A DNA stretch of 64,000 bases from Eubacteriales bacterium (GCA_045635225.1 JAZRBV010000014.1:3544-67543), one strand, 5' to 3'. Counted from the stretch's first letter, positions 3,065 through 43,141 are shown. Program-made: numbers and translations. Notes: generated by a model from the letters alone, not told the origin.

Positions 3065-3149
3065 GCGCGATATGCACCTAGCGTTGCGCGATATGCACCT
3101 AGCGGTGCGCGATATGCCACTTTGTGGCGCGATATGCACCTTGCGGTGC
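3065..3149 (+). repeat. Mini-array of GCGCGATATG repeats with hairpin spacers
   Basis: Core at 3065, 3086, 3107 and 3127. Spacer hairpins include gcacc-tagc-ggtgc, gccac-ttt-gtggc and gcacc-ttgc-ggtgc. Confidence 0.85.
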
Positions 3150-3173
3150 GAGAAATTGCGGATAATGCTATAA

Positions 3174-3217
3174 AAAACGGCTGAAATGCAAATAATACTT
3201 TACAAATCAGCCGTTTT
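3174..3217. terminator. Probable intrinsic terminator downstream of GH20 (bidirectional type)
   Basis: Inverted repeat aaaacggctga...tcagccgtttt with A/T tails. Confidence 0.65.
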
Positions 3218-3243
3218 ATGAGTTTATTTTTACAAATTGCTAA

Positions 3244-5097
3244 TTAAACCTTGAGGTTTACAGTTGATATTCCGGAGTAGTGAACGAAGCCGGAAAGGCT
3301 CTTGTGAAGTCTCTCCTCCTCAAGCTCCTCGATAGCGTCGATCTCGCCATTGAGATACGCCTTGATGAGCATTGCGGCGGTGTCACATCTTGCCGCAACT
3401 CCCGCATATCGTACGTCGAGATTCTGCCAGCCGAGTATCTTGTTATTTTTGAACCAGGTCTCCTTGTGCCATGCGTGGAGCGCCTCGGTCTTTTGCTTCA
3501 GCTCGGGCAGAAGCTGTGTCGCGATAGTGAGAAGTGCATCTCTGTCGCCTGCCTTATACGCCGGGACGAGCATTTCCGCGATCCTTGTCTTCGTTGCCAT
3601 GTAGTCAAAGGCGCGGTATGCGTATTCGTAGAGGTACGCCCATTTTGACTCCCTCGGGTAACCCTTATACTGATCGCGCGAGTACTCGTAGTGAGAGGAC
3701 ATCTTCTTACCAAAGAGATGAGTGTCGTAGAGACCCGCAAGAATATCCTGCCAGAAGAGAGGCTTGCCGAGGAATCGGTTCGCATAGTTGGGATAATCGT
3801 TAGAGTTTTCGAAATCGTTGTGATAGTAGCTCATCTTGTAGAAGAGATCCCACGAGCCGCCCGTCGATGCCTCAAAGCGCGCCTTTGCCTTCTCGTCGGT
3901 GAGCTCCTTATCGTAGCAAAGCTCGGCAAAATATGAGAGACCGAAAAGGTTTGCGAAGGTATCGCACTCTGCGTTATCGTTGCACCAGACGGTGAGCATC
4001 GCCTCGCGCACGCCGTTGTTTCTGCAAGCATCGAGCGAGAATCGGGACGTGCTCATCATATAGTTGTGCTCGGGGAAGTGACCGATCCAGCCCCAGTTGC
4101 CGCCTGCGAAGATCACGTTGCGACCGAGATCGTTATGCTTTTTCAGCATATAGTCGTCGCAGTGGTGATGCTCGCCGTAGTGCCAGAAGACGAGCTCGAC
4201 CTCCTTCGGTATCTTTGCCTTCGTCTCGTCGCGGATGACGGTCGCCTCTTCGTAGTAGGCGTTGTTCTTGGTCTCGACGCGGAAGTACATATCGCTCCAC
4301 ATCATGGGTATGAGTCCGTACTTATTCGTGATACCGATAAGTCGCTCCATATATTCGTTGAAGATCTCAAACGGAGGGACGTAGCCGTATTTGTTGAGGA
4401 ATTCTCCTCTGCCCATATCCCACGCCTCGTCCATACCGATATGTATTCTCTTCGAGCGGAAGCAGGAGGTGACTGTGGCAACGAGCTCGTCTACAAATGC
4501 AAATGTATCCTCGCTTCTCGCCATCATAACGCCGTTTGTGTCCTTGAGCTTCGACGCCTCCGGCCAGATGAGGTACTTTTCCATATGTCCGTAGAGCTCG
4601 AGACAGGGAATAGCCTCGATGCCGTATTCGTAGGCGTAGTCGTCGATGGCACAAAGCTCCTCCTTCGTGTATCTGCCACGCATATATCCGAAGTATTTTC
4701 TCGAATCGAGCTTCACGACGTCCTCGGTGTAGAGCATTATCATGCTGTATCCCATAACGGCGAGGTAGTCTATTACGCTCTTTACCGATTTGACGGTAGG
4801 CACGCCACAGCGCGAGGCATCGATCATCGCGGATATAGTTTTGAAATGGCCGTCCTCGGTGATGTCGAAGGATTTTTTCGTTTTTGCATTTTCAATCAGC
4901 ACAGCGAGCTCGCGCCATACGTGATACTTTTCTTTATAGTAGAGAGTTGCTTTTTTACCCTTGAGTGATACGCCGATACGATCGCCTTTAACCGCCGTGA
5001 CCTCAATTCCGTTCTCCGACACCTCGTAGCCGAGAATTTTCGAAAGACGTGCGATGCCGACGGAGAAGTCGTCGGTTACCTTAAAGTTCAGCCTCAT
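3244..5097 (-). CDS. Glycoside hydrolase family 20 (beta-N-acetylhexosaminidase-like)
   Basis: HIGMDEAW catalytic DE motif, MIDASR, LYTED, IPCLELYGH and MMWSDMY. Start at ATG 5097 with RBS ggagg. Confidence 0.88.
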   Translation of the reverse strand: MRLNFKVTDDFSVGIARLSKILGYEVSENGIEVTAVKGDRIGVSLKGKKATLYYKEKYHVWRELAVLIENAKTKKSFDITEDGHFKTISAMIDASRCGVPTVKSVKSVIDYLAVMGYSMIMLYTEDVVKLDSRKYFGYMRGRYTKEELCAIDDYAYEYGIEAIPCLELYGHMEKYLIWPEASKLKDTNGVMMARSEDTFAFVDELVATVTSCFRSKRIHIGMDEAWDMGRGEFLNKYGYVPPFEIFNEYMERLIGITNKYGLIPMMWSDMYFRVETKNNAYYEEATVIRDETKAKIPKEVELVFWHYGEHHHCDDYMLKKHNDLGRNVIFAGGNWGWIGHFPEHNYMMSTSRFSLDACRNNGVREAMLTVWCNDNAECDTFANLFGLSYFAELCYDKELTDEKAKARFEASTGGSWDLFYKMSYYHNDFENSNDYPNYANRFLGKPLFWQDILAGLYDTHLFGKKMSSHYEYSRDQYKGYPRESKWAYLYEYAYRAFDYMATKTRIAEMLVPAYKAGDRDALLTIATQLLPELKQKTEALHAWHKETWFKNNKILGWQNLDVRYAGVAARCDTAAMLIKAYLNGEIDAIEELEEERLHKSLSGFVHYSGISTVNLKV

Positions 5098-5180
5098 ACA
5101 TGCCTCCAAAACGTGTTTTTTACCTTAATTTTAGCACAAGTGCCCACCCGTGTCAAGTTTTTTGTGTTTTTTCGCAACTT

Positions 5181-6137
5181 TTATCTTATTCTTTCCCATA
5201 TCTCGGGGTCGGAAAGAAGCTCGTCCATCGCATCGCGGCGGTCGGGATTTTTCTTCATATCGCGTATCTCCTCGTAGAAGAACTCGGGTGTTCCGAGCGT
5301 GAGCGGAGGGAAGAAGTATCTCGTCTCCTCAGGCTTCTCGAAGCGGTAGTACTGACCGCCGAGCAGACCCGAATGGTCGTCACCGCCCGAGACGAGAAGG
5401 TCGCATTTTTTCGCGAGAGTCAAGGCGCGGCGTCTTTCCTCACCGTCGAGCTCGCTGTGCCACACCTCGAGACCGTCGAGCCCCTCGCCCGCGAGTATTT
5501 CAACGTAGTCGAGAAGCTCGTGCGGATGCGCAAAGAGCATAACACCGCCCGCATCGTGAACGTGCTTTATCATATCGCGCACGCTCGGGTAGCTTTGAGT
5601 CGATTTTATCGTTCTTTTGAGCTCGGTGGAGAAGCAGGTCTCCTTCAAAGCCTCGCGCTCGGCGTAGGTGACGAGCCCCCTTGCGTGCATCGTATTGAAA
5701 ACGTGGCTGTAAACGAGCCAATTGATGCCCTCGTTATATTTCAGCACGTCATCCCAGCTAACGCCGCTTATCTCGCCCGTCGAGAGTGCTCGCTCAAAGA
5801 GCGCCCTCGTTTGCGAGGTGTATTTGTCTGCCATATTGTTTATGTGCTCGCGGAGGGGCGGATGATCGGCATCGAAGCCGAAGCCGACGAGATGGACGAT
5901 GCGCCCGGTCTCCTCGAGCCTCGCGTAAAACTCCGAGCCGTAAACGTAGCCGAGACCGAGCCTCTCGCACTCGCGCCGCATTATCGGATTGCCCGATACG
6001 GTGTCGTGGTCGGTGAGCGCTATAGCACCGTAGCCGATCTCCTTCGCAAGGCGTGCGAGCTCATCGGGCGAGTAGCGACCGTCCGAGTGCGTCGAGTGCA
6101 TATGCAGGTTAGCGTAATGAGTCAGAAGTCTTGACAT
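5181..6137 (-). CDS. PHP domain phosphoesterase (YciV/TrpH-like)
   Basis: LHMHSTHSDG, ALTDHD, AHP and SGGDDHSG metal-binding motifs. Confidence 0.88.
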   Translation of the reverse strand: MSRLLTHYANLHMHSTHSDGRYSPDELARLAKEIGYGAIALTDHDTVSGNPIMRRECERLGLGYVYGSEFYARLEETGRIVHLVGFGFDADHPPLREHINNMADKYTSQTRALFERALSTGEISGVSWDDVLKYNEGINWLVYSHVFNTMHARGLVTYAEREALKETCFSTELKRTIKSTQSYPSVRDMIKHVHDAGGVMLFAHPHELLDYVEILAGEGLDGLEVWHSELDGEERRRALTLAKKCDLLVSGGDDHSGLLGGQYYRFEKPEETRYFFPPLTLGTPEFFYEEIRDMKKNPDRRDAMDELLSDPEIWERIR

Positions 6138-6192
6138 TTCGTCTCCTCACTGCGTTTTTGCGACACGTGTCGCATTGTTTTGTGTTTTTTCA

Positions 6193-8127
6193 TTATCTCC
6201 TGTCCCTTGACGTGTAGTTGAGCGTTCCGCCCGCGAGCAGAATATCACGCTGACGGCGGCTGAGAGTAAGCTTCGCCGCGACACGTGTCGCATTTTTGCC
6301 ACATATAAGGGTCACGGAGTCGGCGCTGTCGATGGCGTCGCGGAAGCCCTCGATGACGATCTCGTCACCCTCTGCGAGCAGGTCGTAATCCGCCTCGTCC
6401 GCAAGCGTCATCGGAACGATACCGAAGTTTATGAGGTTTGCCATATGGATACGTGCGAAGCTCTTTGCAACCACCGCACGCACTCCAAGATAAAGAGGTA
6501 CGAGAGCGGCGTGCTCGCGCGACGAGCCCTGACCGTAGTTGTGACCTCCGAGTATTATGCCCGAGCCCTTAGCCTTTGCGCGCTCGGGGAAGTCCTTGTC
6601 ACAAACGGTAAAGCAGAACTCCGAGAGCTTCGGAACGTTGGAGCGGTAGGGGAGTATCTTCGCTCCCGCAGGCATAATGTGGTCTGTCGTGATGTTGTCA
6701 CCAACCTTGAGGATAAGCTCGGTTTTGAGACACGTATCGGGCTCTTTACCCTTGGGAATAGGCTTGATATTAGGTCCGCGCTCGACTGTGACCGCCTCTG
6801 CCTCCTCGGGGCTCGCGGGGAGCTCAATGAGGTTATCGTTTACAGAGAAGAGGGCGGGAAGGATGATCTTCGGAGCTGTGCCGAGGGTGGTGGGATCGGT
6901 AAACACGCCCGCTATTGCCGATGCCGCGGCGGTCTCGGGGGATACGAGATAGACCTCTGCGTCCTTGGTGCCGCTACGGGCGAGGAAGTTGCGGTTGAAG
7001 GTACGGAGGCTGACACCCTTTGATTTCGGGGAGAAGCCCATACCGATGCAGGGACCGCATGCACACTCGAGAATTCTCGCTCCCGCCGCTATCATATCGG
7101 CGAGCGCACCGCACTCTGCGAGCATCGTATACACCTGCTTCGAGCCGGGGGATATCGAGAGAGAAACGTCGGGGTGAACGGTCTTGCCCTTCAGCATTGC
7201 GGCGACGGTCAGCATATCGGAGAGAGAGGAATTCGTGCAGGAACCGATGCATACCTGATCGATCTTCATACCCGAAAGATTTGACACGGGTGCCACGTTA
7301 TCGGGCGAATGGGGGCAAGCGGCGAGCGGACGGAGCGCTGAAAGATCGACGGTGTAGCACTCGTCGTATACCGCGTCCGGGTCGGGAGAGAGGGGAATGT
7401 AATCCTCGGCTCTACCCTGTGCTGTGAGGAAGCGAAGAGTTGCTTCATCCGAGGGGAATATCGAGCTTGTCGCGCCGAGCTCAGCGCCCATATTCGTGAT
7501 GGTAGCTCTCTGCGGAACGGACAGCGTTTTGACACCCTCGCCCGCATATTCAATTACTGCACCGACACCGCCCTTGACGCCGAGTATGCGGAGCACCTCG
7601 AGTATAACGTCCTTTGCTCCCACGTAGTCGGGGAGAGCGCCTGTGAGCTTGACCTTGATATTCTTCGGCATTGTGATGTAGTACGCGCCGCCGCCCATCG
7701 CAACCGCAACGTCCAGACCTCCCGCGCCCATACCGAGCATGCCTATACCGCCGGCGGTGGGAGTGTGGCTATCAGAGCCGATCAGCGTCTTGCCGGGCTT
7801 GCCGAATCTCTCAAGATGCACCTGGTGACAGATGCCGTTTCCGGGTCGCGAGAAGCGGATGCCGTGTTTTTTTGCGACTGTCTGTATGTATCTGTGGTCG
7901 TCGGCGTTTTCAAATCCCGATTGGAGAGTGTTGTGGTCGATATACGCAACCGACAGCTCGGTCTTAACGCGGTCGATCTCCATAGCCTCAAGCTGCAGAT
8001 ACGCCATCGTGCCCGTTGCGTCCTGGGTGAGGGTCTGGTCGATGCGGAGCGCCACCTCGGCGCCCGTCTTCATCTCGCCCTCGACGAGATGCTCCTTTAT
8101 GATCTTCTGTACTATTGTAAGTCCCAT
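6193..8127 (-). CDS. Aconitate hydratase (about 640 aa clostridial/archaeal type)
   Basis: DHN, GICHQVH, GSDSHT, IGSCTN, CGPCIG, STFNRN-like RTFNRNF, and a C-terminal swivel domain with GQGSSREHA. Confidence 0.92.
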   Translation of the reverse strand: MGLTIVQKIIKEHLVEGEMKTGAEVALRIDQTLTQDATGTMAYLQLEAMEIDRVKTELSVAYIDHNTLQSGFENADDHRYIQTVAKKHGIRFSRPGNGICHQVHLERFGKPGKTLIGSDSHTPTAGGIGMLGMGAGGLDVAVAMGGGAYYITMPKNIKVKLTGALPDYVGAKDVILEVLRILGVKGGVGAVIEYAGEGVKTLSVPQRATITNMGAELGATSSIFPSDEATLRFLTAQGRAEDYIPLSPDPDAVYDECYTVDLSALRPLAACPHSPDNVAPVSNLSGMKIDQVCIGSCTNSSLSDMLTVAAMLKGKTVHPDVSLSISPGSKQVYTMLAECGALADMIAAGARILECACGPCIGMGFSPKSKGVSLRTFNRNFLARSGTKDAEVYLVSPETAAASAIAGVFTDPTTLGTAPKIILPALFSVNDNLIELPASPEEAEAVTVERGPNIKPIPKGKEPDTCLKTELILKVGDNITTDHIMPAGAKILPYRSNVPKLSEFCFTVCDKDFPERAKAKGSGIILGGHNYGQGSSREHAALVPLYLGVRAVVAKSFARIHMANLINFGIVPMTLADEADYDLLAEGDEIVIEGFRDAIDSADSVTLICGKNATRVAAKLTLSRRQRDILLAGGTLNYTSRDRR

Positions 8128-8151
8128 AATTGCCTCTTTTGTTCCTTTGTA

Positions 8152-8802
8152 TTATTCTACGATCGCGAGCAGATTGTTCATCGCCGCCTCAACGTGCTCG
8201 ACTGTGAGCTTTTCGGCGAGGGATGTGTCGCGTTTTTCAATTGCGTCGAGTATCTCGCGATGCTCGCTTACGGATTTTTCTATTCTCTCGGAGACCGACA
8301 GAGAGAGCTTTCTGTACACCTTTATCTTGCGGTGTAGGTCGGACAGAATGCGCTCGAGGTGCCTGTTCTGCGATGCTCGGTAAATTATACTGTGAAATTC
8401 GGTATCCAGCTCGCGCAGTTTTTCGAGATCGCGCTTGCAGAGATAGAATTCCGACAGCTCTACCGACTCGGTCAGCGCCTTGAAATCCTCCTTGGTGATC
8501 CTTTCTGCGGCGAGCGCCGATGCCAGACCCTCCAGATTTTTCCTTATCTGGTATATATTAGCGAGATCGTCCGGGCTGACACCCACAACGGTGGCACCGC
8601 GGTTGGTGCGTATCTCGACGAGACCCTCCTCGGAGAGTGTATGGAGTGCGGCACGCAGAGGAGTGCGGCTTACACCGAGGCGAGCCGACAGAGCCGTTTC
8701 GGTGAGGATATCGCCTTTTTTCAGAGTGCCGTTGAGTATCTCCTCCTCTAGCTTTAAGAAGGTGCGCTCCTCGAGAGAATGCGTGTTTTTGTCAACAATC
8801 AT
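8152..8802 (-). CDS. GntR family (FadR/FCD) transcriptional regulator
   Basis: wHTH motif LSARLGVSRTPLRAAL..L..EGLV and an FCD domain (DTEFH, EHREILDAI). Confidence 0.92.
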   Translation of the reverse strand: MIVDKNTHSLEERTFLKLEEEILNGTLKKGDILTETALSARLGVSRTPLRAALHTLSEEGLVEIRTNRGATVVGVSPDDLANIYQIRKNLEGLASALAAERITKEDFKALTESVELSEFYLCKRDLEKLRELDTEFHSIIYRASQNRHLERILSDLHRKIKVYRKLSLSVSERIEKSVSEHREILDAIEKRDTSLAEKLTVEHVEAAMNNLLAIVE

Positions 8803-8863
8803 TTACATATTGTCCTTTTAAGGTGATTTTTTGTGTCCGATGTCGATTTTTTAAAATGAAAAA

Positions 8864-10282: not shown

Positions 10283-10293
10283 TTTATGCACCT

Positions 10294-12813: not shown

Positions 12814-13128
12814 TATCTTCTCCTTGTTGATGCATCAAAGCTATCGCCCGCGGCGCGTTATCGTGACGTTCCTTTGAGCCTTGCTCGTATGCACAAGTGC
12901 GTCTCGTATACCGTTATTCTATCATTTCGCGAGCAAAAAATCAACGATTTTGAAGTAAAAAGCAACGGAAAATGGTCGGAGAACAGCTTGTGCTGTCGCT
13001 CTTCATAGAAAATTAACCCCTCGTTACCGAAATTTTCTAAATAATATTTTCTTTTTCAAAGCTATGTTAATAATTTGTTTAAAATTATGTGGTATAATGT
13101 TTCGGTGACTGGTATGTCGCTTGCGCGA

Positions 13129-13240
13129 CTCGATATGCACCTTGCGGTGCTCGATATGCTCGCAGTCGCTCGCTCGATATGCGCGCAGTCGCTCGCTCGA
13201 TATGTTGCTTGCGCAACTCGATATGTCACTTGCGCGAGCG
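13129..13240 (+). repeat. Mini-array of CTCGATATG repeats with hairpin spacers
   Basis: Core at 13129, 13150, 13173, 13196 and 13217. The unit cgatatgcaccttgcggtgc is shared with 3130-3149. Confidence 0.85.
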
Positions 13241-13299
13241 TGATTTTTGATTATTTTGATTAAATGCACAGCCACTTTGTGGCGGAATGGAGTAAATAA

Positions 13300-14265
13300 A
13301 TGGTAAAAGCGGAAAATCTTGTAAAAAGATACGGCTCAAATTACGCCTTGAACGACGTAAGCTTTGAGATAGGCGAGGGCGAGATCGTCGGTCTGCTCGG
13401 CCCCAACGGTGCGGGCAAGAGTACGGCGATGAACATTCTGACCGGCTATCTCTCGTCGACCTCCGGCGCGGCTTACGTAAATGGGATCAATATTCTCGAC
13501 GACCCCATAGAGGCAAAAAAATACATAGGCTTCCTCCCTGAGCAGCCACCCGTCTATCCCGATATGACGGTCTCAGAATATCTTAACTTCGTATACGAGC
13601 TGAAATCCTGCGAGCTCGATCGCGCAGAGCACATCGCCGAGATACTCGCGGTAGTAAAGCTCACCGACGTGAAGGACAGGCTTATAAAGAATCTTTCGAA
13701 GGGCTATAAGCAGCGCGTAGGTATAGCGCAGGCTCTGGTAGGCGATCCGAAGGTCATAATCTTCGACGAGCCTACGGTCGGTCTCGACCCGAAGCAGATA
13801 CTCGAGGTGAGAAACCTCATCAGAACGCTCGGTAAAAAGCACACCGTCATTCTCTCGACACATATCCTCGCCGAGGTGCAGGCGGTCTGCGAGCGAGTCA
13901 TCATCATAAACAAGGGCGTGATCATCGCCGACGAGCGCACCGACGATCTCACCAGAACGATCGAGGACGGCTTCTCCTATGAGGTGCGTATCTGTGCGCC
14001 CCAGACGGAGGCTCTCACCGCTCTTCGTAAGGTGGTTGGCGTGCGCGAGGCGCGCGCTACGGGCGAGCGTGACGGTGATGCGTGCGTATTCGTCGTAGAG
14101 GCGAGCGCGAGCTACGACGTCAGAAAATCGCTCTTCAAGCTCTGCGCCTCGAACGATTGGCCCCTCGTCGGTCTTGCGCCCGTAGGTACAGATCTCGAGT
14201 CGATATTCATAAAGCTCGTCGATCGCGCCGACAAGAAGCCCGATACCTCGAAGAAAAGAAGATAA
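13300..14265 (+). CDS. ABC transporter ATP-binding protein (GldA-like)
   Basis: Walker A GPNGAGKS, signature LSKGYKQRV and Walker B IIFDEPTVGLDP. Confidence 0.92.
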   Translation: MVKAENLVKRYGSNYALNDVSFEIGEGEIVGLLGPNGAGKSTAMNILTGYLSSTSGAAYVNGINILDDPIEAKKYIGFLPEQPPVYPDMTVSEYLNFVYELKSCELDRAEHIAEILAVVKLTDVKDRLIKNLSKGYKQRVGIAQALVGDPKVIIFDEPTVGLDPKQILEVRNLIRTLGKKHTVILSTHILAEVQAVCERVIIINKGVIIADERTDDLTRTIEDGFSYEVRICAPQTEALTALRKVVGVREARATGERDGDACVFVVEASASYDVRKSLFKLCASNDWPLVGLAPVGTDLESIFIKLVDRADKKPDTSKKRR

Positions 14266-15034: not shown

Positions 15035-16546
15035 ATGAATAAATTCAAACAAAAGTTTACATCTTACCTCAAAGGGCGAGATTTTTCGTCCAACGTTACG
15101 GCGACGATGATCATTGCTGCCGTGGTATTTGTAAACATCATCATATACACTCTGACCTCTACTCTCGGTCTGTATCTGTATCAGCCGGAGAAGCTTGATC
15201 TCTCTATTACGGATTCCTCGGACGGAATATTTGAGGACGCGATAAACCACGGACTTACGATCACCGTCACCTTCTGTATGTACGAGGACGAGCTCAGCGT
15301 TCATTCGACGGGCAAGTTCGTCTATGAGACGGCGAAAAAGTTTGCCGAGCGCTATCCCACCCTCTTTAATTTCCGCTTTGTCAACGTGATAACTCAGCTC
15401 GATTCCGAGGGCGAGTTCGTCGATCTTTCGATATATAAATACGACGGACGCGGCAGGGAAAACGCCATCCTCGCGAGCTCGGTAATATTCGAATGCGGCA
15501 ACAACTACCGCGTTGTCACCGATGCGATCACCGGTGCGGGATATGCCGACTTCTTCACGCTTGATTCCACCTACTCTCCGACCTCCTATAACGGCGAGGA
15601 AGCGTTTGCATCTATGTCCCGTTGGGTGCTCACCGACGAGCATAAGGTCGCCTTTTTCACCGTCGGACACGGTGAGACTGCGTCCTTGCATCTCTACAGC
15701 GCGCTCGTCTATGCGGGCTACTACGTAGAGGAGATAAACCTGCGCGACAGCTCTCTCGACGAGGATAAGTTCCTCGCCGATGCGGGACTCGTCGTTATAT
15801 CCAATCCCACGAGCGACATCGAGCGCGCGGTTGAGGGCTCTACGGTGCCCACGGAGATGGAGCGCCTCGAAAAATATGCGGAAAACGGCGGCTCCTTCCT
15901 CGTAACGCTCGACCCCCTCGCGAGAAAGATGCCTGTCCTTACCGAGTTTTTAGGCAGCTACGGCATGAGCATCATGACCGATGCGGAGGGTGCCTCCCTC
16001 GTCGTGAAGGACAGCTATAACGCGATACCCACCGACGACTTTACCGTCGTGGTCGACTACGCCTCGGGGGATGTCGCACAGAGCGTTGCGGCAAATATAC
16101 AGGACAGCGGAAACAGAGTAATACTCCGCAACTGTGCGCCCCTCAGGCTCACGGGCGGCGCCGAGCCTATGCTCGTCACCTCCGAGTACGCCGTAGCCCA
16201 CTCGGGTGAGGACGTCTATGACCGAGAGGGAAGCTATGCCGTTGCCGCACATTCGGTCGGCTCGGACGGCTCTCGCATCTTCTTTATTCCCAGTATATTT
16301 TTCACCGCCGCGGACGCCATGGTCTCGAGCGGATATTCCAACAAGGATTTCATAATGTCGCTTGCGGACGAGTACTACGGCATGGGCGATATGCCCTACG
16401 GCTGTCGCAGTGTCCTCTATGACGATACCACTCTTGAAAATCTCACGATGAGCTCTGTCAGACTCTACGTTGCGATAGCTCTCATCATTCCCGCCCTCCT
16501 TGCGGCTCTGGGCGCAGTAGTCATCATAAGAAGGAGGAACAGATGA
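15035..16546 (+). CDS. GldG-family ABC auxiliary component
   Basis: N- and C-terminal TM helices and the VAFFTVGHGE motif. Confidence 0.75.
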   Translation: MNKFKQKFTSYLKGRDFSSNVTATMIIAAVVFVNIIIYTLTSTLGLYLYQPEKLDLSITDSSDGIFEDAINHGLTITVTFCMYEDELSVHSTGKFVYETAKKFAERYPTLFNFRFVNVITQLDSEGEFVDLSIYKYDGRGRENAILASSVIFECGNNYRVVTDAITGAGYADFFTLDSTYSPTSYNGEEAFASMSRWVLTDEHKVAFFTVGHGETASLHLYSALVYAGYYVEEINLRDSSLDEDKFLADAGLVVISNPTSDIERAVEGSTVPTEMERLEKYAENGGSFLVTLDPLARKMPVLTEFLGSYGMSIMTDAEGASLVVKDSYNAIPTDDFTVVVDYASGDVAQSVAANIQDSGNRVILRNCAPLRLTGGAEPMLVTSEYAVAHSGEDVYDREGSYAVAAHSVGSDGSRIFFIPSIFFTAADAMVSSGYSNKDFIMSLADEYYGMGDMPYGCRSVLYDDTTLENLTMSSVRLYVAIALIIPALLAALGAVVIIRRRNR

Positions 16547-36525: not shown

Positions 36526-36541
36526 AATTTCTCCTTCGCCG

Positions 36542-36964
36542 TTATTGGCTTTTGCCGCAATACGCACAGAATGTTGAGTCGGCATCGATGGATTTTCCAC
36601 AATGCTTGCAGAATTTACTCTCTCGCTTACCGTTAGCGACGGCATTTGCGGTGATTTGAACGGCTTCGCTGATAATTTCAGCGGTTGAGGTAGCGATAGC
36701 CGTCATATCCTCTTTGTTTTCTTCATGGATGTAACGAACGGTGCGCGCTCTCATTTTCGCGATCTCGGGTCCGAAGCCTATAAAAATACCGCTGAAGCTA
36801 GCGATCATACCGAACACGGCGAGAAACGTACCGATCATAAAGTCGTTGCTCTCGAAATCACCAAATCCCGAAACGGCGAGTATCACGCCGACAATACAAA
36901 GAGCGACTCCAAGAGCGCCGACTATTTTAAATATTAGCAGATAGCGAGGTTTTGAACGGTTCAT
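36542..36964 (-). CDS. Membrane protein with a C-terminal zinc ribbon
   Basis: Two TM helices and FCKHCGKSIDADSTFCAYCG. Confidence 0.8.
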   Translation of the reverse strand: MNRSKPRYLLIFKIVGALGVALCIVGVILAVSGFGDFESNDFMIGTFLAVFGMIASFSGIFIGFGPEIAKMRARTVRYIHEENKEDMTAIATSTAEIISEAVQITANAVANGKRESKFCKHCGKSIDADSTFCAYCGKSQ

Positions 36965-36978
36965 ACGCTTTTTCCAAT

Positions 36979-37638
36979 CTATATTCTTTTTAGTAAAATA
37001 TCAATATAAAAATCAAACATATTTGCGGTATTCATAACCGCGCGGTATACCAATATTCCGAGGAATATTATCATGACGGATGAGACGGTGACGAGTGCCT
37101 TGATCCTTTTTGGCGAGTTCTTATATATCAGTCGGTAAACAAGGTAGCCTATCAGAGCACCCACGGTGTTGGTGACCAGATCTACCGCGGAAAAAGCTCC
37201 TATGTTTGATATCAGCTGCAACAGCTCAAAGCCAAAGCTCAGAAGTACGGACGGTATGACCGTGTTGAGAAACTTACACCTTTTCGCAAAATAGGATGTA
37301 TATATGCCAAACGGTATAAAAACGATCACGTTCAGTATATCCTGTCGAGCATCAAAAGGATCTGTTTTCCATATGTCAGACTTGAAAATTACAGCGAAGC
37401 TCTCCTTCACAAACTGCAACTTTTCTCTGAGAGTCATAGCGCCAAAAAAGTAATAAGTGTCGGTAATTGTAACCTTTAGATTACATTTTAGCGAAATTAC
37501 CCATACTAAAAGCGAGAGATACAGAGCAAATAAAATAACACTCAAAATGTAAAGCGTGTGGGTCGGCGTGCAGTTCTTGCATTTAATTTTAGAAATCATT
37601 TGCGCCTTTGCTTCATCCGTTGGGATGACACCTTCCAT
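36979..37638 (-). CDS. VanZ family membrane protein
   Basis: LNVIVFIPFG, FELLQ and DLVTNTVGALIG motifs. Confidence 0.82.
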   Translation of the reverse strand: MEGVIPTDEAKAQMISKIKCKNCTPTHTLYILSVILFALYLSLLVWVISLKCNLKVTITDTYYFFGAMTLREKLQFVKESFAVIFKSDIWKTDPFDARQDILNVIVFIPFGIYTSYFAKRCKFLNTVIPSVLLSFGFELLQLISNIGAFSAVDLVTNTVGALIGYLVYRLIYKNSPKRIKALVTVSSVMIIFLGILVYRAVMNTANMFDFYIDILLKRI

Positions 37639-37791
37639 TTATAAATAGTATTACGTATAACACGGTTGAACGTATGCCGTGACGGAAAACGTTTTGCCCG
37701 ATAGCCGATAGCTTTCCATTGCCCGACTGTTTTTCCGGTAGTAAACGATGCGCGTTAATTGTGGGAGCTTGCGTGGCAAACGTCCCCGACA

Positions 37792-38309
37792 CCAGACAAC
37801 CCCTCACAAAAGTGGGTGGGAGCGCTGAGGTGCCCTAATAAAACCAAAGCCCCGGAGGATAAGCGTGATGTCCTAAACGGACAAATCACGCTAAGTTATG
37901 ATTGCCCCTGCGGGCAAGCTATGAGTTATGAAATGCTACGCATTGTTATGATTGGCTTCGCCAAGTTTAAAAATTGATAGGCAATCATATCATAACGTTC
38001 GCGTAGCAAACTCATAACGGCGAGCAAGGCGAGCCTCATAACTCTAAACTAAAACCAACAAAAAAGAGCAGACATACAAGAATTACAAAATCGGGGTTGT
38101 CTGGAGCCACCCGGGTATTCACCGATGGTGAATATACCCACAACCTACGCCTGAAGAGCGAGCTCTTCGATCTGCGGTTGGGGAATGCGAACCGGACTTC
38201 GCTTGCGCGAAGCTCGATGCGAAGCGAGAGCAGCAGCCCCAGACAACCCCTCACTAAAGTGTGTGGGAGCGCTGAGGTGCCCTAATAAAACCAAAGCCCC
38301 GGAGGATAA
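37792..38309. repeat. 71-bp direct repeat (37792-37862 and 38239-38309) downstream of tRNA-Thr
   Basis: ccagacaacccctcac...ccccggaggataa, 69 of 71 bp identical by hand alignment. Confidence 0.9.
37895..38042. repeat. Head-to-head mini-array: GTTATGA copies then TCATAAC copies with hairpin spacers
   Basis: GTTATGA at 37895, 37925 and 37945 (variant at 37918). TCATAAC at 37990, 38012 and 38036. Confidence 0.85.
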
Positions 38310-38323
38310 CCTCCGGGGTTGTC

Positions 38324-38399
38324 TGGAGCTGCTACCCGGATTCGGACCGGGGACCTCATCCTTACCAAGGATGTGCTCTACCAGCTGAGCCATAGCAGC
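38324..38399 (-). tRNA. tRNA-Thr(GGT)
   Basis: 76-nt cloverleaf GCTGCTATGGCTCAGCTGGTAGAGCACATCCTTGGTAAGGATGAGGTCCCCGGTCCGAATCCGGGTAGCAGCTCCA with encoded CCA. Confidence 0.96.
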
Positions 38400-38612
38400 A
38401 TTTACCACGAAGATGTTTCCCCGTGACGCAGTACATTATAGCAAAATTTTATGCGTTTGTCAATATGTTTTTTTGCTTTTTTTCTTAAATTTTTAACTCT
38501 TTTTGAAAAAAATCGAATAATAGGGAATTTTTTATTTAGTATTTTTTATTTGTTCATCAGTTGTTTATGATTTATTCATATTTATTTGCTACAATATATT
38601 AGTCGCAAATAC

Positions 38613-38880
38613 GGAGTATAACCGGTCGGAAGAATGCGAAAATAAAAACTTAATATTTGGACCATTAGCTCAGTTGGTTAGAGTTTTGTATCATAATCAA
38701 GCGTGAGCGAGTCTGTGCTCGCACAAGCGAGGCACGCGCAGATTGCTCCGTGAGCGCATCGTTTTGCGATGCAGGGTGCGAAGCGCCCATGCCCCGAGGC
38801 GGCTCACAAGGAGTATAACCGGTCGTATAAATGCGAAATTTAAAATTTAATATTTGGACCATTAGCTCAGTTGGTTAGAG
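38613..38880 (+). repeat. 71-bp duplication including the 5' 25 nt of tRNA-Ile2, separated by a 126-bp hairpin-rich insert
   Basis: Copies at 38613-38683 and 38810-38880, 65 of 71 bp identical. Confidence 0.9.
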
Positions 38881-38932
38881 CTACCGGCTCATAACCGGTC
38901 GGTCCTAGGTTCGAGTCCTAGATGGTCCACCA
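38856..38932 (+). tRNA. tRNA with CAT anticodon, most likely tRNA-Ile2 (lysidine type)
   Basis: 77-nt cloverleaf GGACCATTAGCTCAG...CTCATAA...GGTCCACCA. The GGACC acceptor stem resembles Firmicutes Ile2 rather than fMet. Elongator Met is not formally excluded. Confidence 0.9.
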
Positions 38933-38933
38933 A

Positions 38934-38970
38934 CAAAAAGAGGTCAGCCCTTGCGGTTGACCTCTTTTTG
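38934..38970 (+). terminator. tRNA terminator
   Basis: caaaaagaggtca / tgacctctttttg stem. Confidence 0.8.
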
Positions 38971-39174
38971 TTGTCGGAGCCGTCTCGATTGACTCAACCT
39001 AGTTTTCGCAGGCAAAGCCGAGAAAATAGGTTCGCATTCCCGCCGCAGAGCGCGTCGAGCTCGCTCGTAAGCGGCAAGGCGAGGAATATTGATGCTCGTC
39101 GTCAAAATACTAGAGGCTATCTCTAATATGTTGTAGCACTACAAGGGGCTGTAACGTATTTTCCCCGGTGAATA

Positions 39175-39203
39175 TTGACATAGAATAAGTTATATGCTAC
39201 AAT
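39175..39203 (+). promoter_or_regulatory. Sigma-A promoter TTGACA-N17-TACAAT
   Basis: Motifs at 39175-39180 and 39198-39203. Confidence 0.75.
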
Positions 39204-39228
39204 TATTCGAGAGAAAAAAGTCGGGAGG

Positions 39229-40296
39229 GTGGCAATGTTACTTTTATTGAGACCTAAGAACGGATCTTATGTGGGCCTTGCGAGCGAATATCAGACTAAT
39301 TTTTGTACCGAGGGTGCTAAAAGGCTGCGTGCTGATATGGACGCGGAGCAGTTAAAATTTATTTGGAACGACGTTGCTCCCGGACAAGACAGAGACGAGC
39401 ATTCTCACCCTGCGCCGGTATGCTTTGAGTGGCGGGACAGACCTTGTGAGATAGGTCACAATAACAGGAAAATATATACCTTTTTGGTTATATCCGAAAA
39501 TGCGGACATGTCTTCTCCCGAGGTTTATATCACTGCCGGCTCGTCGATGAAGGTTTACAATCTTAAAATTGCAACGAGGTATTACTGGTTCGTGCAGAAA
39601 AACGGACGGCGCAGTGAGGTTTATAGCTTCGTTACGGAGGATATTGCTCCTCGCTTTCTGCGCATAGTAGGCGTTTCAAACGTCCGTGATATGGGAGGCT
39701 ACAAGCTTATCGGCGGCGGTGTAATACGCCAGGGGCTGATGTACCGAGGAAGTGAATTTGAAAACAAGGTGCATTTATCCAAGGAGGGTGCAGAGGCTCT
39801 TGCCGCACTTAAAATAAAAACCGATCTGGATCTTCGAGGTGAGGCGAAAATATCGGTTGAGCATCCGACCTCGGAGCTACTCGGAATGAACAGGATATCT
39901 CTTGTCTCGGAGGCGTATGCAGGCTTGTTTGACGAAGGCGAGAGGGAAGAGCTTTATACCTTCTTTTCCACCTTTGCGAGCCCTGAAAATTATCCTATTT
40001 ATTACCACTGCCGAGGGGGCGCTGACAGGACGGGCTCATACGCCTTTATCCTTGGCGCACTTTACGGAATGACTCTTGAGGATCTGATCCTTGAATACGA
40101 GATCACTTCTATTTCTATCTGGGGCGGAAGAAACCGTAATCATCATCTCTTCAAGGAATTTCTTGACCGCTTCAACCGGCTTTCCGGCGAAGCTCTATCC
40201 GATAAAGCGAGAGCCTTCCTCCTCGAGTACGCCGGTCTTTCAACGGCGCAGATAGATAAAATCTATGAAATCGCCGTTTGTAAGGACGGAAAATAA
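39229..40296 (+). CDS. Tyrosine-protein phosphatase (PtpB/IphP-like) with N-terminal extension
   Basis: NVRDMGGY, DLDLR and the CX5R P-loop HCRGGADRTG. Confidence 0.88.
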   Translation: MAMLLLLRPKNGSYVGLASEYQTNFCTEGAKRLRADMDAEQLKFIWNDVAPGQDRDEHSHPAPVCFEWRDRPCEIGHNNRKIYTFLVISENADMSSPEVYITAGSSMKVYNLKIATRYYWFVQKNGRRSEVYSFVTEDIAPRFLRIVGVSNVRDMGGYKLIGGGVIRQGLMYRGSEFENKVHLSKEGAEALAALKIKTDLDLRGEAKISVEHPTSELLGMNRISLVSEAYAGLFDEGEREELYTFFSTFASPENYPIYYHCRGGADRTGSYAFILGALYGMTLEDLILEYEITSISIWGGRNRNHHLFKEFLDRFNRLSGEALSDKARAFLLEYAGLSTAQIDKIYEIAVCKDGK

Positions 40297-40634
40297 AATC
40301 GGAGAAGAGATATAAGTAAATGTTGTCGGTTCGACTTTCGTTAAAGATGGTCCACCAAAATAAAAAGACGAACCGTGGTTCGTCTTTTTATTTATCCAAG
40401 ACCGAAGGGGTTGGTATGGCATCAAGCGATAGCTTGTATTTCTCCGTCTTCCTTCGTTCTTGATTCCATACTCGCCTTTAGCGAGATTCTATGCCGCAAC
40501 GAGTTGCGGATTCCATTCACGGCTTTGCCGTGATTTGGTACGAAAGCGAGAAATATTGACGCTCGCCGTCAAAATCCTAGATGTGACCACTCGAACCTCG
40601 CAAGAGGATTGGTTTTCGTTTTGTTTTTTCTATG

Positions 40635-40666
40635 AATTGTCCCCGACAAGCTGTCGGGGACAATTC
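40635..40666. terminator. Terminator downstream of the Fic gene
   Basis: gaattgtccccgaca / tgtcggggacaattc perfect stem. Confidence 0.72.
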
Positions 40667-40685
40667 TGTATGTTTGGTTTGTGTT

Positions 40686-41537
40686 TTATTCTTCCTCGTA
40701 GTAATATGAATAGTCAATACCCTTCATAAACAATTCTCTATCGTTAATTTTGTCTGTTAAAGCATTCTGTATTAAAGAGAAAATTTCGTTTGCGCTAAAA
40801 GGACTTTTTTTCATCGCCTCAAGATATTTAGTTTTATCTATCCCGCTCCAATCAACGCATTTACCTAAATTCTTTTTCAAAATCAGATCAAGCCAAATTC
40901 TCGTAGCTCGTCCATTACCTTCCATAAAAGGATGCGCTACGTTCATTTCTACGTATTTTTGAACGATCTCTTCGAGAGTGCTTTCGGGCATTTTTTCAAT
41001 CGATTTCAAATTTTCTTCCAGATACAATGCGTTAGCAAATTTGAAACCGCCCTTGCTGATATTATGCGTTCTGATTTGACCGGCAAAATCGTAAAGGCCG
41101 CCGAAAATAAAGGAGTGAATTTGCTTTAGTCCCTTGACTGTTCCGACCTCAATGTTTTCAATCAATCCGCCCTCAAGCAAAGAATATGCCTTTTGCTTGC
41201 TTTTCTCGTCAATCGTTGTGCCCATTGTTTTCATCCAATGAGTAAATGCCGCCGTTTTTTTGCTCGGGATAACCATGATCAGTGTATTTACACCGTCATC
41301 GTCAATAACATCGGTTAAATACGATTTACCATCCTTAGCCATCAATTTCAGTTGTCCGCAAATTGAAGACAACTGAGGATTTCTGCTTTTTATGGTATTC
41401 CAATATTTTCTCGGAGATTTGCTACCCGTTAATGCTTCGGCAATATCTACAGCGCAAAACCACCACTTGGAGCTTTCATCATTCCATACCGCGCGCACGG
41501 GAATATTGTCAAAAAAACGAATAGAAGTTTTGATCAC
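40686..41537 (-). CDS. Fic/DOC family protein with an N-terminal BRO-like domain
   Basis: Canonical [12 protein letters not shown]. The N-terminal VRAVWN...[11 protein letters not shown]...YW is BRO-N-like. GTG start with RBS aaggagg. Confidence 0.88.
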
Positions 41538-41753
41538 TTTTGCCTCCTTATAGCAGTCATTTTGCCTAACTGAAATTATCATATATATTATATCACTTTT
41601 TCCCGTTTTTTGCAAGTCAAATGTGTAAAAATGCCAAAATTGCAACGTTGATTTTTAGGCGGATGAGTTGTCGTCTTGATATCGCGAAGCGACGCCACAT
41701 GTAAGGGGACAAGCACGCGCCTCGGTGATAAAACACATTTTGTGTCACGCATC

Positions 41754-41782
41754 TTGATTTTTAACGTTTAATGTGCTATAAT
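41754..41782 (+). promoter_or_regulatory. Sigma-A promoter TTGATT-N17-TATAAT
   Basis: Motifs at 41754-41759 and 41777-41782 with an extended -10. Confidence 0.6.
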
Positions 41783-41871
41783 TAGTTGAAAATAAAAATA
41801 TGTTAAATAAGGCACTTGTTTTTTAAAAAGCAAATGCTTTATTTTAAAAAGCAACATTTGTGAGGTTTGAA

Positions 41872-42822
41872 ATGGCTTGTAATTTATGTGGGGGAGAAAG
41901 TGGAAAGTACTTTCTTTGTTTTAAGTGCAACAAACTTAAAGATGAAGGCAAGGCATTAAAGTGCCCGGATTGTAGCAAATGGTTTTACGCGGATAAAGGT
42001 TGCTCTTGCAAATCAGCAACACCAAGACCAGACCCCAAAATCGTTAAAGCGCCGCCGGCGCAAAAAAACGAAAAGGCTGCCGGAGATGGTGTCTGTATAG
42101 TTTGTGCCAATAGCGCCCCGAATGGTCACCTTTGTCGTGATTGTTACTACGAAATGCGCGATTTCAAGGACAGTTTTGACAAAAATTCAAAGCCGTTTGA
42201 TATGAAAGATTATTATTTTAATCTTCGATCAAACATATATCGCATGAAAACGTTCGACTTTATCAAAAGCAACTGTAATAAGTTGATGGCTATTGCGAAT
42301 TTTGTTTTTGAATTATTCCATGATACGTCTTTGACCGATAGGGTAGTGAATGATATAAAGGATATTATTGAATCTAAAAAGCCAAAAGAAGAAGTAAAGA
42401 TTTCTGAAGAAGTTAAGCAAAAGGATAGCCACAAAGAAGAACTTAGAAGAACGTGCGACGGGCACTATGTTAAGAGTGATCCTGAAATTGTGGTTGACGA
42501 TATATTGTATGAAAATCGCATAGTTCATTGCTATGAGAAAAAGGTTCCTATCGATTCTGATGAACAAACTATAAAATGCGATTGGTTCATTCCGGTTACG
42601 GACAGTAGACATGGTATTTACATAGAATATTGGGGAATGAACACAAAAGAATATCTGCAAAATAAAGAACGCAAACGAAAGGCATACAAGGATCACGATA
42701 TACCTTTAATAGAAATCGAAAAAGACGACTACAAAGACCGTCAAGGATTGAGTGATAGAATAATATCTGAAATAAACAAACTCGCAAAAAAATATTACAA
42801 CGTAATAGATTATCTCAAATAA
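41872..42822 (+). CDS. Zinc-ribbon protein with a putative C-terminal PD-(D/E)xK-like nuclease domain
   Basis: Five CxxC motifs. C-terminal KS..E...D.LY...YEK...DWFI...IYIEYWG...K...Y pattern. AT-rich codon usage. Confidence 0.62.
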   Translation: MACNLCGGESGKYFLCFKCNKLKDEGKALKCPDCSKWFYADKGCSCKSATPRPDPKIVKAPPAQKNEKAAGDGVCIVCANSAPNGHLCRDCYYEMRDFKDSFDKNSKPFDMKDYYFNLRSNIYRMKTFDFIKSNCNKLMAIANFVFELFHDTSLTDRVVNDIKDIIESKKPKEEVKISEEVKQKDSHKEELRRTCDGHYVKSDPEIVVDDILYENRIVHCYEKKVPIDSDEQTIKCDWFIPVTDSRHGIYIEYWGMNTKEYLQNKERKRKAYKDHDIPLIEIEKDDYKDRQGLSDRIISEINKLAKKYYNVIDYLK

Positions 42823-43141
42823 AAGGTGCGAACGAGTAGTCATTATTTCAATTCAATTACCTAACTATTAGTAGCAGTTCAACTTTCGTGAATCTTGGTC
42901 CACCAAAATAAAAAGACGAACTTCAGTTCGTCTTTTTATTTATCCAAGACCGAAGGGGTTGGTATGGAATTGCGGCTCGTCCGCGTATGGCATCAAGCGA
43001 TAGCTTGTATTTCTCCGTCTCCCTTCGTTCTTGATTCCATACCGTCTGTGACGGATTCCATACGACACTTCGTGTCGATTCCATACCGCAACAAGTTGCG
43101 GATTCCATTCACGGCTCTGCCGTGATTTGGTACGGAGGGGT

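Follow-up and report, generated by a model that had tools for sequence, protein, structure and literature searches.

The TRAP protein is an oligomeric ring that binds one short RNA repeat per subunit in the leader of the gene it regulates, and the spacers between these repeats are irrelevant. Direct and inverted arrays of heptads or iterons are bound by Omega (inc18 plasmid) and ParR, ribbon-helix-helix proteins that sit on contiguous B-form heptads (WATCACW for Omega). CRISPR arrays, which come with cas genes, have a constant repeat (24-48 bp) and unique spacers of about the same size, while type III toxin-antitoxin systems (ToxIN-like) combine identical tandem repeats of ~34-48 nt with a terminator and an endoribonuclease toxin gene. 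In REPs it is the hairpin sequence that is conserved, and the Y1-transposase gene is flanked by the repeats.

The PF05635 family includes the Avd and S23p proteins (PDB 4dwl, 2rld, 2gsc, 8ub7). The Avd pentamer grips an RNA stem-loop, with flipped-out bases in crevices between protomers (bioRxiv 10.1101/2023.10.23.563531), and S23p genes are also found inside stable-RNA operons (PMC4990558). Gut-1 (RF01706) is an orphan motif classed as a stand-alone ncRNA, for which no function was given beyond 'human gut only' (Weinberg et al. 2010, PMC2864571). The arrays that we analysed in a stretch of 64,000 nucleotides from a Eubacteriales bacterium (the window) are linker variants of this one published, unexplained motif, and their partner is a PF05635 gene, not an enzyme.

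Gut-1-like arrays in the window

Repeat counts in the window exceeded those in shuffles or those expected for all three families named in the initial annotation, which are real and lie where it had placed them. CGATATG occurs 29 times (13.1 +/- 3.9 in shuffles), with clusters at 3068-3136 and 13131-13225. GTTATGA occurs 15 times (7.4 expected), with three forward and three reverse copies at 37895-38042, and GATTCCATAC four times (0.14 expected), at 40462 and 43033-43086. As the initial annotation had proposed, the families are variants of one thing and share one grammar: a constant linker of 7 nt (GCGATAT, TCGATAT, GTTATGA) or 8 nt (ATTCCATA) alternates with hairpins of variable sequence (stems 4-7 bp, loops 3-4 nt), giving periods of 21-23 bp (TRF). 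The TATG that it had placed in every core is not general: in this genome, the TGAAAT and GATGT families lack it.

Two of the arrays are orphan single arms on the plus strand. The first (3051..3161) carries the linker GCGATAT four times, at 3067, 3088, 3109 and 3129, with hairpins that include GCACC-TAGC-GGTGC and GCCAC-TTT-GTGGC, and has convergent ASCH and GH20 genes on either side. The second (13113..13243) carries TCGATAT five times (13130-13224) with variable hairpins between. It is placed between a putative TG-extended -10 element, read from the sequence as TGgTATAAT (13090..13098, plus strand), and an ABC ATPase gene starting at 13300, and is probably the first part of the 5' UTR of that gene. 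Our promoter scan did not call this promoter because the -35 is weak. An additional orphan array, the fourth in the window, lies beyond the span given by the initial annotation, between convergent genes (53701..53783, minus strand), and has the canonical Gut-1 linker GTGAAAT (GUGAAAU).

The GTTATGA copies form a two-arm module on the plus strand. Its distal arm (37895..37965) has three GTTATGA linkers with a hairpin after each, and its proximal arm (37990..38042) has three copies of the reverse-complement linker TCATAAC. Between them, the centre half-unit GGCAATCAT (37980..37988) is complementary to ATGATTGCC (37898-37906), a stretch made up of the last part of linker 1 and the 5' half of the first hairpin; we call this pairing, which is present in most modules, the 'closing helix'. 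No PF05635 gene follows the proximal arm. The module sits in the 3' flank of a tRNA-Thr(GGT) gene (38324..38399, minus strand), between two copies of a ~70-nt trailer (37791-37859 and 38238-38306).

The GATTCCATAC module, also on the plus strand, consists of a distal-arm remnant (42962..42990) with GTATGGAAT and GTATGG, the reverse complement of ATTCCATAC, and a proximal arm (43033..43134) in which three copies of GATTCCATAC, one of GATTCCATTC and one of GATTTGGTAC come in this order, with a hairpin after each. A partial second copy (40414..40542, plus strand) forms a direct repeat with 42962-43134. The proximal arm ends 14 nt 5' of the ATG at 43148, where a PF05635 pseudogene begins (43148..43349, plus strand). 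Its frame from 43167 corresponds to about residues 8-55 of the family and is 44% identical to the paralog on contig 52 (E 2e-10). The remnant is frameshifted relative to the ATG, shortened to about 60 aa, and scores only 20.2 bits against a family cut-off of 33.8. The initial annotation, which saw no enzyme for the arrays, had missed this degenerate partner gene at 43167-43349.

Comparison with Rfam revealed the likeness to Gut-1, whose grammar is identical: three or more small covarying hairpins with 7-nt linkers of the GUGAAAU type between them. Its seed alignment already contains GUGAUAU/GCGAUAU linkers and the layout of tRNA, terminator, GUGAUAU-hairpin array and inverted array. With cmscan, window positions 3086-3161 and 53701-53783 align to Gut-1 positions 1-77, including all three hairpins, although at 42.6 and 46.1 bits they remain below the gathering score of 50 bits. 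The genome holds 72 matches, of which 21 reach or exceed that score, GATATG-linker arrays among them. The model reports neither the GTTATGA nor the ATTCCATA(C)/ATTCCATAC arrays of the window, and in Rfam only one arm is modelled, with no closing helix, second arm or partner. The suggestion that the window held an undescribed system therefore does not stand, a match to a published repeat class being an outcome that its author had named as refuting. A CRISPR array was rejected on the constant part of 7-8 nt, the variable palindrome of 9-19 nt and the units of 16-33 bp; a type III toxin-antitoxin system was rejected on the 16-33-nt units, the non-identical hairpins and a downstream gene that belongs to PF05635 and is not of ToxN type.

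Array-gene modules within and beyond the genome

The genome encodes six intact PF05635 genes, on contigs 60, 52, 22, 16, 71 and 14, which score 88-98 bits with the PF05635 model (cut-off 33.8) and 99-107 bits with TIGR02436 (cut-off 24). A two-arm array lies directly upstream of five of the six and of the window pseudogene, while the sixth has 5+5 contiguous heptads instead. Arrays and gene form a compact module of roughly 650 bp, in the order hairpin/terminator, distal arm, centre half-unit, inverted proximal arm and gene. The distal arm has four conserved linkers and one degenerate linker, the centre half-unit is able to base-pair with the beginning of the distal arm, and the proximal arm has four or five reverse-complement linkers. 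The inverted arms noted earlier in the window are real, and the suspected four-helix-bundle neighbour is indeed the partner of the arrays.

Arrays also lie directly upstream of the gene in most of about 100 loci from other species, and most of 80 such loci share the layout at fixed distances. Conservation is limited to the region from about -300 through the stop codon. A co-oriented tRNA or tmRNA gene lies at most 500 nt upstream in 47/60 related loci, bearing out the proposed link to tRNA genes. Among 300 Clostridia genomes, PF05635 was present in 52/59 with a Gut-1 match versus 60/241 without one (odds ratio 22, p 2e-19).

The most common linker length is 7 nt. Core-to-core distances span 16-33 bp and favour even values, as expected for 7 + 3 + 2n in a folded form. 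Closing inverted repeats of 9 nt or more occur at a fixed place in 42/63 loci versus 4/63 in the control, and their sequence varies from clade to clade. Hairpin-less variants have exactly five contiguous heptads with the same gene family downstream. We counted the 7-nt mode, the closing repeat and these five heptads for the proposed folded form.

Across the genome we found 61 arms, which belong to six linker families and are all intergenic. Orphan arrays occur in all orientations and in intergenic regions of all types. The arrays are mixed into mosaics with other repeat modules, and the GATATG family shows a few hairpin types in a fixed order, as if copied as a unit. This dispersal resembles that of REP/BIME/REPIN hairpin repeats and would fit elements spread by a RAYT (IS200/IS605-type TnpA), by a nuclease such as DUF559 or by an RT, all neighbours suggested in the initial annotation. 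However, none of these adjoins an array or a PF05635 gene in this genome, which has two DUF559 genes, two RT genes and a single Y1_Tnp (contig 43, around 80.7 kb) without an array nearby, and we rejected REP/REPIN with RAYT on that count. Here, moreover, the hairpin is variable and the linker constant, the opposite of REPs, making such an origin highly improbable.

Covariation between partner protein and linker

The AF2 model of the partner protein (pLDDT 95, four helices) predicts an up-down four-helix bundle like 2rld (E 2.6e-40; Foldseek TM 0.89-0.95) and 2gsc (TM 0.78-0.86). It also resembles Avd (TM 0.75-0.82), sharing its fold and presumably its pentameric barrel; by analogy with the five chains in 2rld and 2gsc and with the Avd pentamer, we presume a homopentamer. 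The proteins differ from the strongly basic Avd/S23p in being nearly neutral (mean net charge +1.7), and the ligand here is a periodic array, whereas Avd binds a single stem-loop. Identity with the Avd of diversity-generating retroelements (DGRs) was rejected at 19.6 bits for NF033474, the Avd equivalog (cut-off 80), with no adjacent RT, TR or VR. The only two RVT_1 genes of the genome are on contigs 42 and 9, neither of which is a PF05635 contig.

Linker class tracks protein clade (10 changes versus 31.7 in shuffles). In 59/59 modules, linker base 1 is G where residue 4 is S/T and A where it is N/D, and both states are found within four linker classes. Base 5 likewise follows residue 64 in 59/59 modules (T with E, A with Q), with at least three clade-level switches. 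Both rules also fit 12/12 loci fetched afterwards, among which was a new linker class. In the predicted bundle, the residues that covary (4, 7, 48, 54, 57, 64, 103, 109 and 110) are all close to one end. Because two residues change in step with two linker bases, the arrays appear to be recognition sites of the PF05635 protein.

We also considered whether Gut-1 is a free-standing structured small RNA, as first classed, or a selfish repeat, with gene and array co-travelling on a mobile cassette and the correlations due to block inheritance. About 50 of the 61 arms in the genome have no adjacent PF05635 gene, the family was not seen in seven of the 59 Gut-1-positive genomes, and blocks upstream seem to have been swapped between gene backgrounds (L023 is like L002, and L022 like L006). 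Since the codon of residue 4 is only 70-240 bp from the array, the residue-4 rule could partly reflect hitch-hiking with such blocks. Residue 64, however, is encoded about 190 nt inside the gene and still tracks base 5. All eight to ten linkers of both arms change together while hairpin stems drift freely, the rules predicted new loci, and hairpin-less variants retain five heptads before the same gene family. We consider block inheritance without recognition improbable.

Candidate ligands and proposed regulation

On balance, we favour the prediction that the arrays are the cognate, folded nucleic-acid sites of PF05635 (S23p/Avd-like) pentamers, with one linker per protomer. Extrusion of the hairpins would bring about five 7-nt linkers of an arm side by side, and each protomer would read one linker at the end of its helical bundle formed by the helix 1 N-terminus, the helix 2-3 turn and the helix 4 C-terminus. 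Residues 4 and 7 may read base 1 (S/T plus R/K with G, N/D with A), and residue 64 may read base 5 (E with T/U, Q with A). Gene-less arrays (such as 3051..3161, 13113..13243 and 53701-53783) could be extra trans sites, or decayed or dispersed copies. The outcome for the module is probably autoregulation.

We favour RNA as the candidate ligand, at about even probability. In this version the array would be leader or tRNA-trailer RNA, and a protein ring on the xUGAxxx strand would autoregulate its own gene as TRAP does, with the complementary proximal arm and the closing helix as a source of alternative pairings. Five heptads would match a pentamer, although TRAP has an unrelated fold, the spacers here are structured hairpins, there is a second inverted arm, and binding is our proposal. 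Recognition rules in which Asn/Gln pair with A and Arg/Lys with G are established, and by our reading these pairings make chemical sense only on the xTGAxxx strand. In the GCTAAAT class the only TG-extended promoter is upstream of the whole array, L099 has a 12/12 promoter, then five heptads, then ATG, and in three modules of this genome the proximal arm abuts the ribosome-binding site. We took these three arrangements, the Avd precedent, the upstream tRNA or tmRNA genes of the 47/60 loci and the xTGAxxx pairings as pointers to RNA.

Alternatively, the same partnership may act on DNA, a reading we hold to be possible but rather doubtful: pentamers would bind linkers in duplex with extruded mini-hairpins or cruciforms, or in transient single-stranded DNA, the two inverted arms being an operator that represses or insulates the promoter and the orphan arrays further chromosomal sites. 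The arms carry an identical linker in inverted orientation, and 7-bp units that run direct then inverted beside a promoter recall Omega/ParR and suggest autoregulation. The Omega heptad resembles the proximal-arm linkers ACATCAC and ATATCAC, although heptads here are mostly split by variable-length palindromes. In the classes closest to the contig-60 gene, the arrays have a terminator on one side and a strong promoter on the other, with the -35 directly next to the last linker. In hairpin-less variants, heptad orientation relative to the gene is variable. Stem mismatches comprise 19 G-T versus 22 A-C in 2960 stem positions, equally balanced in each arm, versus 13 G-T and 5 A-C in neighbouring terminator hairpins; Watson-Crick-only stems with balanced G-T and A-C counts, on every strand model, are expected if both strands must fold. 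The loops C(GAA)G, C(GCA)G and C(GNNA)G, dominant on one strand, are classic stable DNA mini-hairpin loops. DGR target sites require a DNA hairpin/cruciform whose GC stem varies while its GRNA loop is conserved (PMC3240598).

Against a DNA ligand, cruciforms would have to be extruded from very short stems (4-6 bp), distances of 16-33 bp exclude B-form phasing, and the covarying closing helix, which competes with hairpin 1, resembles an RNA switch. In an unbiased sample, the repeats lie between promoter and start codon in 14/17 parsed genes, and RNA binding is the sole structural precedent in the family. For the preferred reading, with RNA as ligand, we counted several observations on the other side. 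The TGATG, TGAAG and TGATAT classes have a good promoter between array and gene and a terminator upstream, so that their arrays would be transcribed only by read-through. No strand shows tolerance of G-U pairs in the stems, a layout with two inverted arms suits DNA better than RNA, GNA/GNNA loops closed by C-G lie on the strand opposite to the proposed read strand, the proteins are near-neutral, and orphan arrays take any orientation.

More broadly, we put forward tentatively, at a little under even confidence, that PF05635 represents a large and so far unrecognised class of nucleic-acid readers, modular and ring-shaped, with a simple residue-to-base code and one 7-nt linker per protomer. If so, the orphan Gut-1 motif would gain a partner and the widespread PF05635 family a function. 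It would also hint at the ligands of S23p genes in 23S rRNA intervening sequences and cas loci, and would provide a small scaffold with reprogrammable specificity.

Repeat arrays of the window and the Gut-1 motif

The initial annotation had read three repeat cores of the window as one architecture of short cores and hairpin spacers, and as its best candidate for an undescribed system. All three cores were enriched over shuffled sequence and clustered where it had placed them. CGATATG gave 29 matches in the window versus 13.1 ± 3.9 in shuffles, with four at 3068–3136 and five at 13131–13225; GTTATGA gave 15 versus 7.4, with a cluster of three forward and three reverse copies at 37895–38042; GATTCCATAC gave 4 versus 0.14, at 40462 and 43033–43086. 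TRF returned array periods of 21–23 bp. Reading the arrays by eye, we found a constant linker of 7 nt (GCGATAT, TCGATAT or GTTATGA) or 8 nt (ATTCCATA), alternating with small hairpins whose stem sequence changes from unit to unit (GCACC-TAGC-GGTGC, GCCAC-TTT-GTGGC and GACAC-TTC-GTGTC, for example). In view of unit length and variability, we rejected readings as a CRISPR, type III antitoxin repeats, iterons or units phased on B-form DNA.

Searching the 3.26 Mb genome (91 contigs) revealed 61 arms, which fall into six linker families (GATATG, TGAAAT, GATGT, GTTATGA, GTATGGAAT and GATGAAG). A fourth array of the window, at 53701–53783, has linker GTGAAAT. All arms are intergenic, in any orientation and in any kind of intergenic space. 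A further two-arm array, on contig 16 at about 114240–114400, belongs to the GTATGGAAT / GATTCCATAC family; this fourth family of the window therefore has more than one representative in the genome. The GATATG arrays sit in mosaics of other repeat modules (window 2860–3045; contigs 10, 23, 46, 59, 85 and 86), such as AGCCTTCC(C/T)C..GGGAGGAAGGTGGC.. and GGGGACCAC(G/A)..GTGGTGGAAGGAG, which recur on either side of the arrays and themselves fold into GC-rich hairpins.

A permissive Rfam scan matched the orphan motif Gut-1 (RF01706) at 3086–3161 (42.6 bits) and 53701–53783 (46.1 bits), both below the gathering score of 50 bits. Genome-wide there were 72 matches, 21 of them above this score, with GATATG-linker arrays among these. 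Gut-1 was described from human-gut metagenomes only, as probably a non-coding RNA (Weinberg et al. 2010, PMC2864571). GUGAUAU and GCGAUAU linkers are already present in its seed alignment, as is the layout tRNA, terminator, array and inverted array (RF01706). As the seed holds several linkers, one architecture with several families was the right reading, while the claim of an undescribed class falls: the arrays are a known motif with new linker variants. Literature searches found no later functional work on Gut-1 and nothing relevant on tandem hairpin repeats in Clostridia.

A PF05635 gene as the partner of the arrays

The genome encodes six intact PF05635 genes (23S_rRNA_IVP; TIGR02436, 'four helix bundle protein') and one weak match. 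A two-arm array lies directly upstream of five of the six; the sixth has inverted arms of five plus five contiguous CT-rich heptads without hairpins. The weak match is a remnant in the window itself (43167–43349), encoding residues ~8–55 of the family with 44% identity to the contig-52 paralogue (E 2e-10), in a frame other than that of the ATG at 43148 and prematurely ended. Since it lies immediately behind the GATTCCATAC arm, a remnant of the partner is visible in the window. The four-helix-bundle neighbour suggested initially is thus confirmed, in contrast to the RAYT, DUF559 and RT genes also suggested, none of which adjoins the arrays or the PF05635 genes in our neighbourhood check.

With an alignment of the six proteins we collected 80 loci of other species, most of which showed the same anatomy at fixed distances: a distal arm at about −230 to −160 and, between about −130 and −60, a proximal arm in which the linker is reverse-complemented. 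Conservation between loci is confined to the stretch from about −300 to the stop codon, making the unit a compact module of ~650 bp. The expected tRNA linkage was borne out, with a same-strand tRNA or tmRNA gene of any identity at most 500 nt upstream in 47/60 loci. In a sample of 300 Clostridia genomes, 112 had PF05635/TIGR02436; it was present in 52/59 genomes with a Gut-1 match versus 60/241 without (odds ratio 22, p 2e-19), and many Gut-1 matches visibly adjoin PF05635 on one contig. The module is nearly absent from phage (2/50,697 records). An empty-site and synteny comparison aimed at mobility gave no DNA match for the contig-16 module flank in 30 relatives. Altogether, the initial observation is confirmed and its interpretation partly supported, as one tRNA-linked family with a four-helix-bundle neighbour.

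The module often opens at about −300 to −230 with a hairpin of A6...T6 bidirectional-terminator shape (L004, L007, L011, L013, L021, L070 and other loci). Both the core, CACTTTTGTC...GACAAAGGTG, and a T-G wobble are conserved between species and downstream of various tRNA genes, which makes the hairpin part of the module and not of the tRNA operon. No consistent minus-strand promoter for an antisense RNA through the arrays was found. A PF05635 sub-family has exactly five contiguous 7-bp repeats without hairpins (contig 60 at 15952–16317, and loci L083, L085, L086, L092 and L099), either immediately before the start codon or as 5 + 5 inverted arms; AATTCAC, TTGAAAA and AAGTGAG, each repeated five times, are examples. 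Small ORFs of ~100–120 aa follow PF05635 genes (contig 60, 13.7–16.9 kb; contig 16, 113548–113910), and contig 60 has repeated cassettes beginning MIDLKPYYQVKL; these may be immunity-like cargo. Clostridia-type modules also occurred in bins of other phyla (L041 and L062 in Victivallaceae MAGs, L049 in a Bacteroidaceae MAG), through either horizontal transfer or bin contamination.

Within the window, the arrays at 3051–3161, 13113–13243 and 53701–53783 are single arms without a gene. PF05635 genes elsewhere in the genome have matching linkers, G[CT]GATAT on contig 52 and TGAAAT on contigs 22 and 16. The array at 13113–13243 lies directly 3' of a TGgTATAAT box and 5' of an ABC ATPase gene; should that promoter be active, transcription of the array would run in the Gut-1 orientation. 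With both arms complete, the GTTATGA element is a module whose gene has been lost; it is located in the 3' flank of a tRNA-Thr gene between two copies of the tRNA trailer (37779–37859 and 38238–38306, 97% identity). An ~80-nt element at 38113–38193, which had no match in Rfam, recurs on contigs 28, 79, 84, 12 and 73 at 77–88% identity. The GATTCCATAC element and its pseudogene make up a decayed module, partly duplicated around a Fic/Bro-N gene (40686–41645, minus strand). Direct repeats of ~200 bp, comprising terminator and GATTCCATAC module (40348–40542 and 42896–43134), enclose this gene and an ORF of 320 aa with no family assigned (41860–42822), an arrangement that looks like an insertion or the recombination of two module copies.

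Covariation of protein residues and linker bases

Linker class tracks the PF05635 protein tree, with 10 changes versus 31.7 in shuffles (0/200 shuffles as low). Residue 4 (contig-60 protein numbering) agreed with linker base 1, S/T going with G in 24/24 cases and N/D with A in 35/35, a rule that linkage could explain in part, as this residue lies near the array and upstream blocks seemingly recombine between gene backgrounds; both states were found within each of the TGATG, TGAAG, TGATAT and TGAAAT classes. Residue 7 agreed partially with the same base, R/K occurring with G and otherwise mostly V/A/S/L. Residue 64, which is less exposed to the linkage problem, agreed with linker base 5, E with T (32/32) and Q with A (27/27), with at least three clade-level switches. 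A follow-up set of 20 more PF05635 loci from the class sample yielded 17 parsable genes, 5 with the five-heptad form and 12 with hairpin arrays. Both rules hold in 12/12 of the latter, nine of which belong to the previously hardly seen GCTAAAT linker class and carry S4 and Q64.

AlphaFold predicts a four-helix bundle (pLDDT 95), its helices spanning 2–26, 30–50, 56–82 and 88–114, a topology that would place the covarying residues 4, 7, 48, 54, 57, 64, 103, 109 and 110 towards one end of the bundle. Foldseek matched the model to the five-chain structure 2rld (TM 0.89–0.95), which was also matched by sequence, to 2gsc, to the diversity-generating retroelement (DGR) accessory protein Avd (4dwl, 0.75–0.82) and to the DGR ribonucleoprotein 8ub7. 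The PF05635 partner and the residue–base rules are the new content here, and we found this link nowhere in the searchable literature.

Folded arrays as proposed RNA or DNA ligands

We analysed 149 arms with 525 hairpins and 2960 stem positions. Stems are 4–7 bp and most loops 3 or 4 nt long; C-G closes 391/525 hairpins, and the most frequent linker length is 7 nt. Core-to-core distance ranges over 16–33 bp, so B-form DNA spacing is not conserved, and even values are preferred, as expected for 7 + 3 + 2n. It is the linker, with the hairpins folded out, that is conserved. Distal arms have four good linkers and a degenerate fifth, proximal arms four or five, and hairpin-less variants exactly five heptads. 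We also observed a 9–14-nt inverted repeat, in which the end of linker 1 and the 5' half of hairpin 1 can pair with the central half-unit. A position-based inverted-repeat test placed this closing helix at a fixed position in 42/63 loci versus 4/63 in a control; a comparison of unit 1 with units 2+ gave a noisy result, as unit 1 is in many cases degenerate. The helix sequence varies between clades, and the GTTATGA module of the window has one (37898–37906 with 37980–37988). The closing helix competes with hairpin 1, resembling the alternative helices of a switch.

This switch-like appearance fits an RNA ligand, to which we give about an even chance. The family's sole mechanistic precedent also points to RNA: the Avd pentamer grips an RNA stem-loop, present in most DGRs, with flipped-out bases in protomer crevices (bioRxiv 10.1101/2023.10.23.563531). 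The GCTAAAT class has its only TG-extended promoter upstream of the entire array, placing both arms in the leader, and at L099 five heptads stand between a perfect promoter (12/12 consensus) and the ATG. The proximal arm touches the ribosome-binding site in three modules of this genome, the module is placed behind co-oriented stable-RNA genes, and Asn/Gln-A and Arg/Lys-G pairings are chemically sensible if the xUGAxxx strand is read.

Folded or extruded DNA as the ligand is a less probable but substantial alternative, to which we assign about a third of the weight; other readings share what is left. The same linker occurs in two inverted arms, and arrays of the TGATG, TGAAG and TGATAT classes have a terminator on one side and a strong promoter on the other. 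Whichever strand model is used, G-T is tolerated in the stems no better than A-C (19 versus 22 overall). Distal arms, proximal arms and orphans each show near-equal counts of the two, compared with 13 versus 5 in adjoining terminators. Testing for G-U wobble to identify the transcribed strand, we saw no asymmetry under any of the strand models; an apparent T-G excess was due to constant linker bases flanking the stems. Loops on the Gut-1 strand are TTC, TTGC, TGC, TAC and TGAC, giving GAA, GCAA, GCA, GTA and GTCA on the opposite strand. Loops of the forms C(GNA)G and C(GNNA)G are known as the classic stable mini-hairpin loops of DNA. DGR targets, moreover, require a DNA hairpin or cruciform with variable stem and conserved GRNA loop (PMC3240598).

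Gut-1 has been an Rfam entry since 2010 without function, partner or cultured host, and PF05635, whose members are likewise found within 23S rRNA intervening sequences, at cas loci and in DGRs, has a known role only for its DGR member Avd. The tie between them merges two long-standing unknowns into one experimental question, for which the covariation predicts two residues to alter and the resulting specificity. For annotation of gut Firmicutes, arrays of 7-nt linkers and small hairpins are to be read as Gut-1-type sites, not as CRISPR-like or REP-like repeats, and as pointers to a PF05635 gene that is close by or has decayed.
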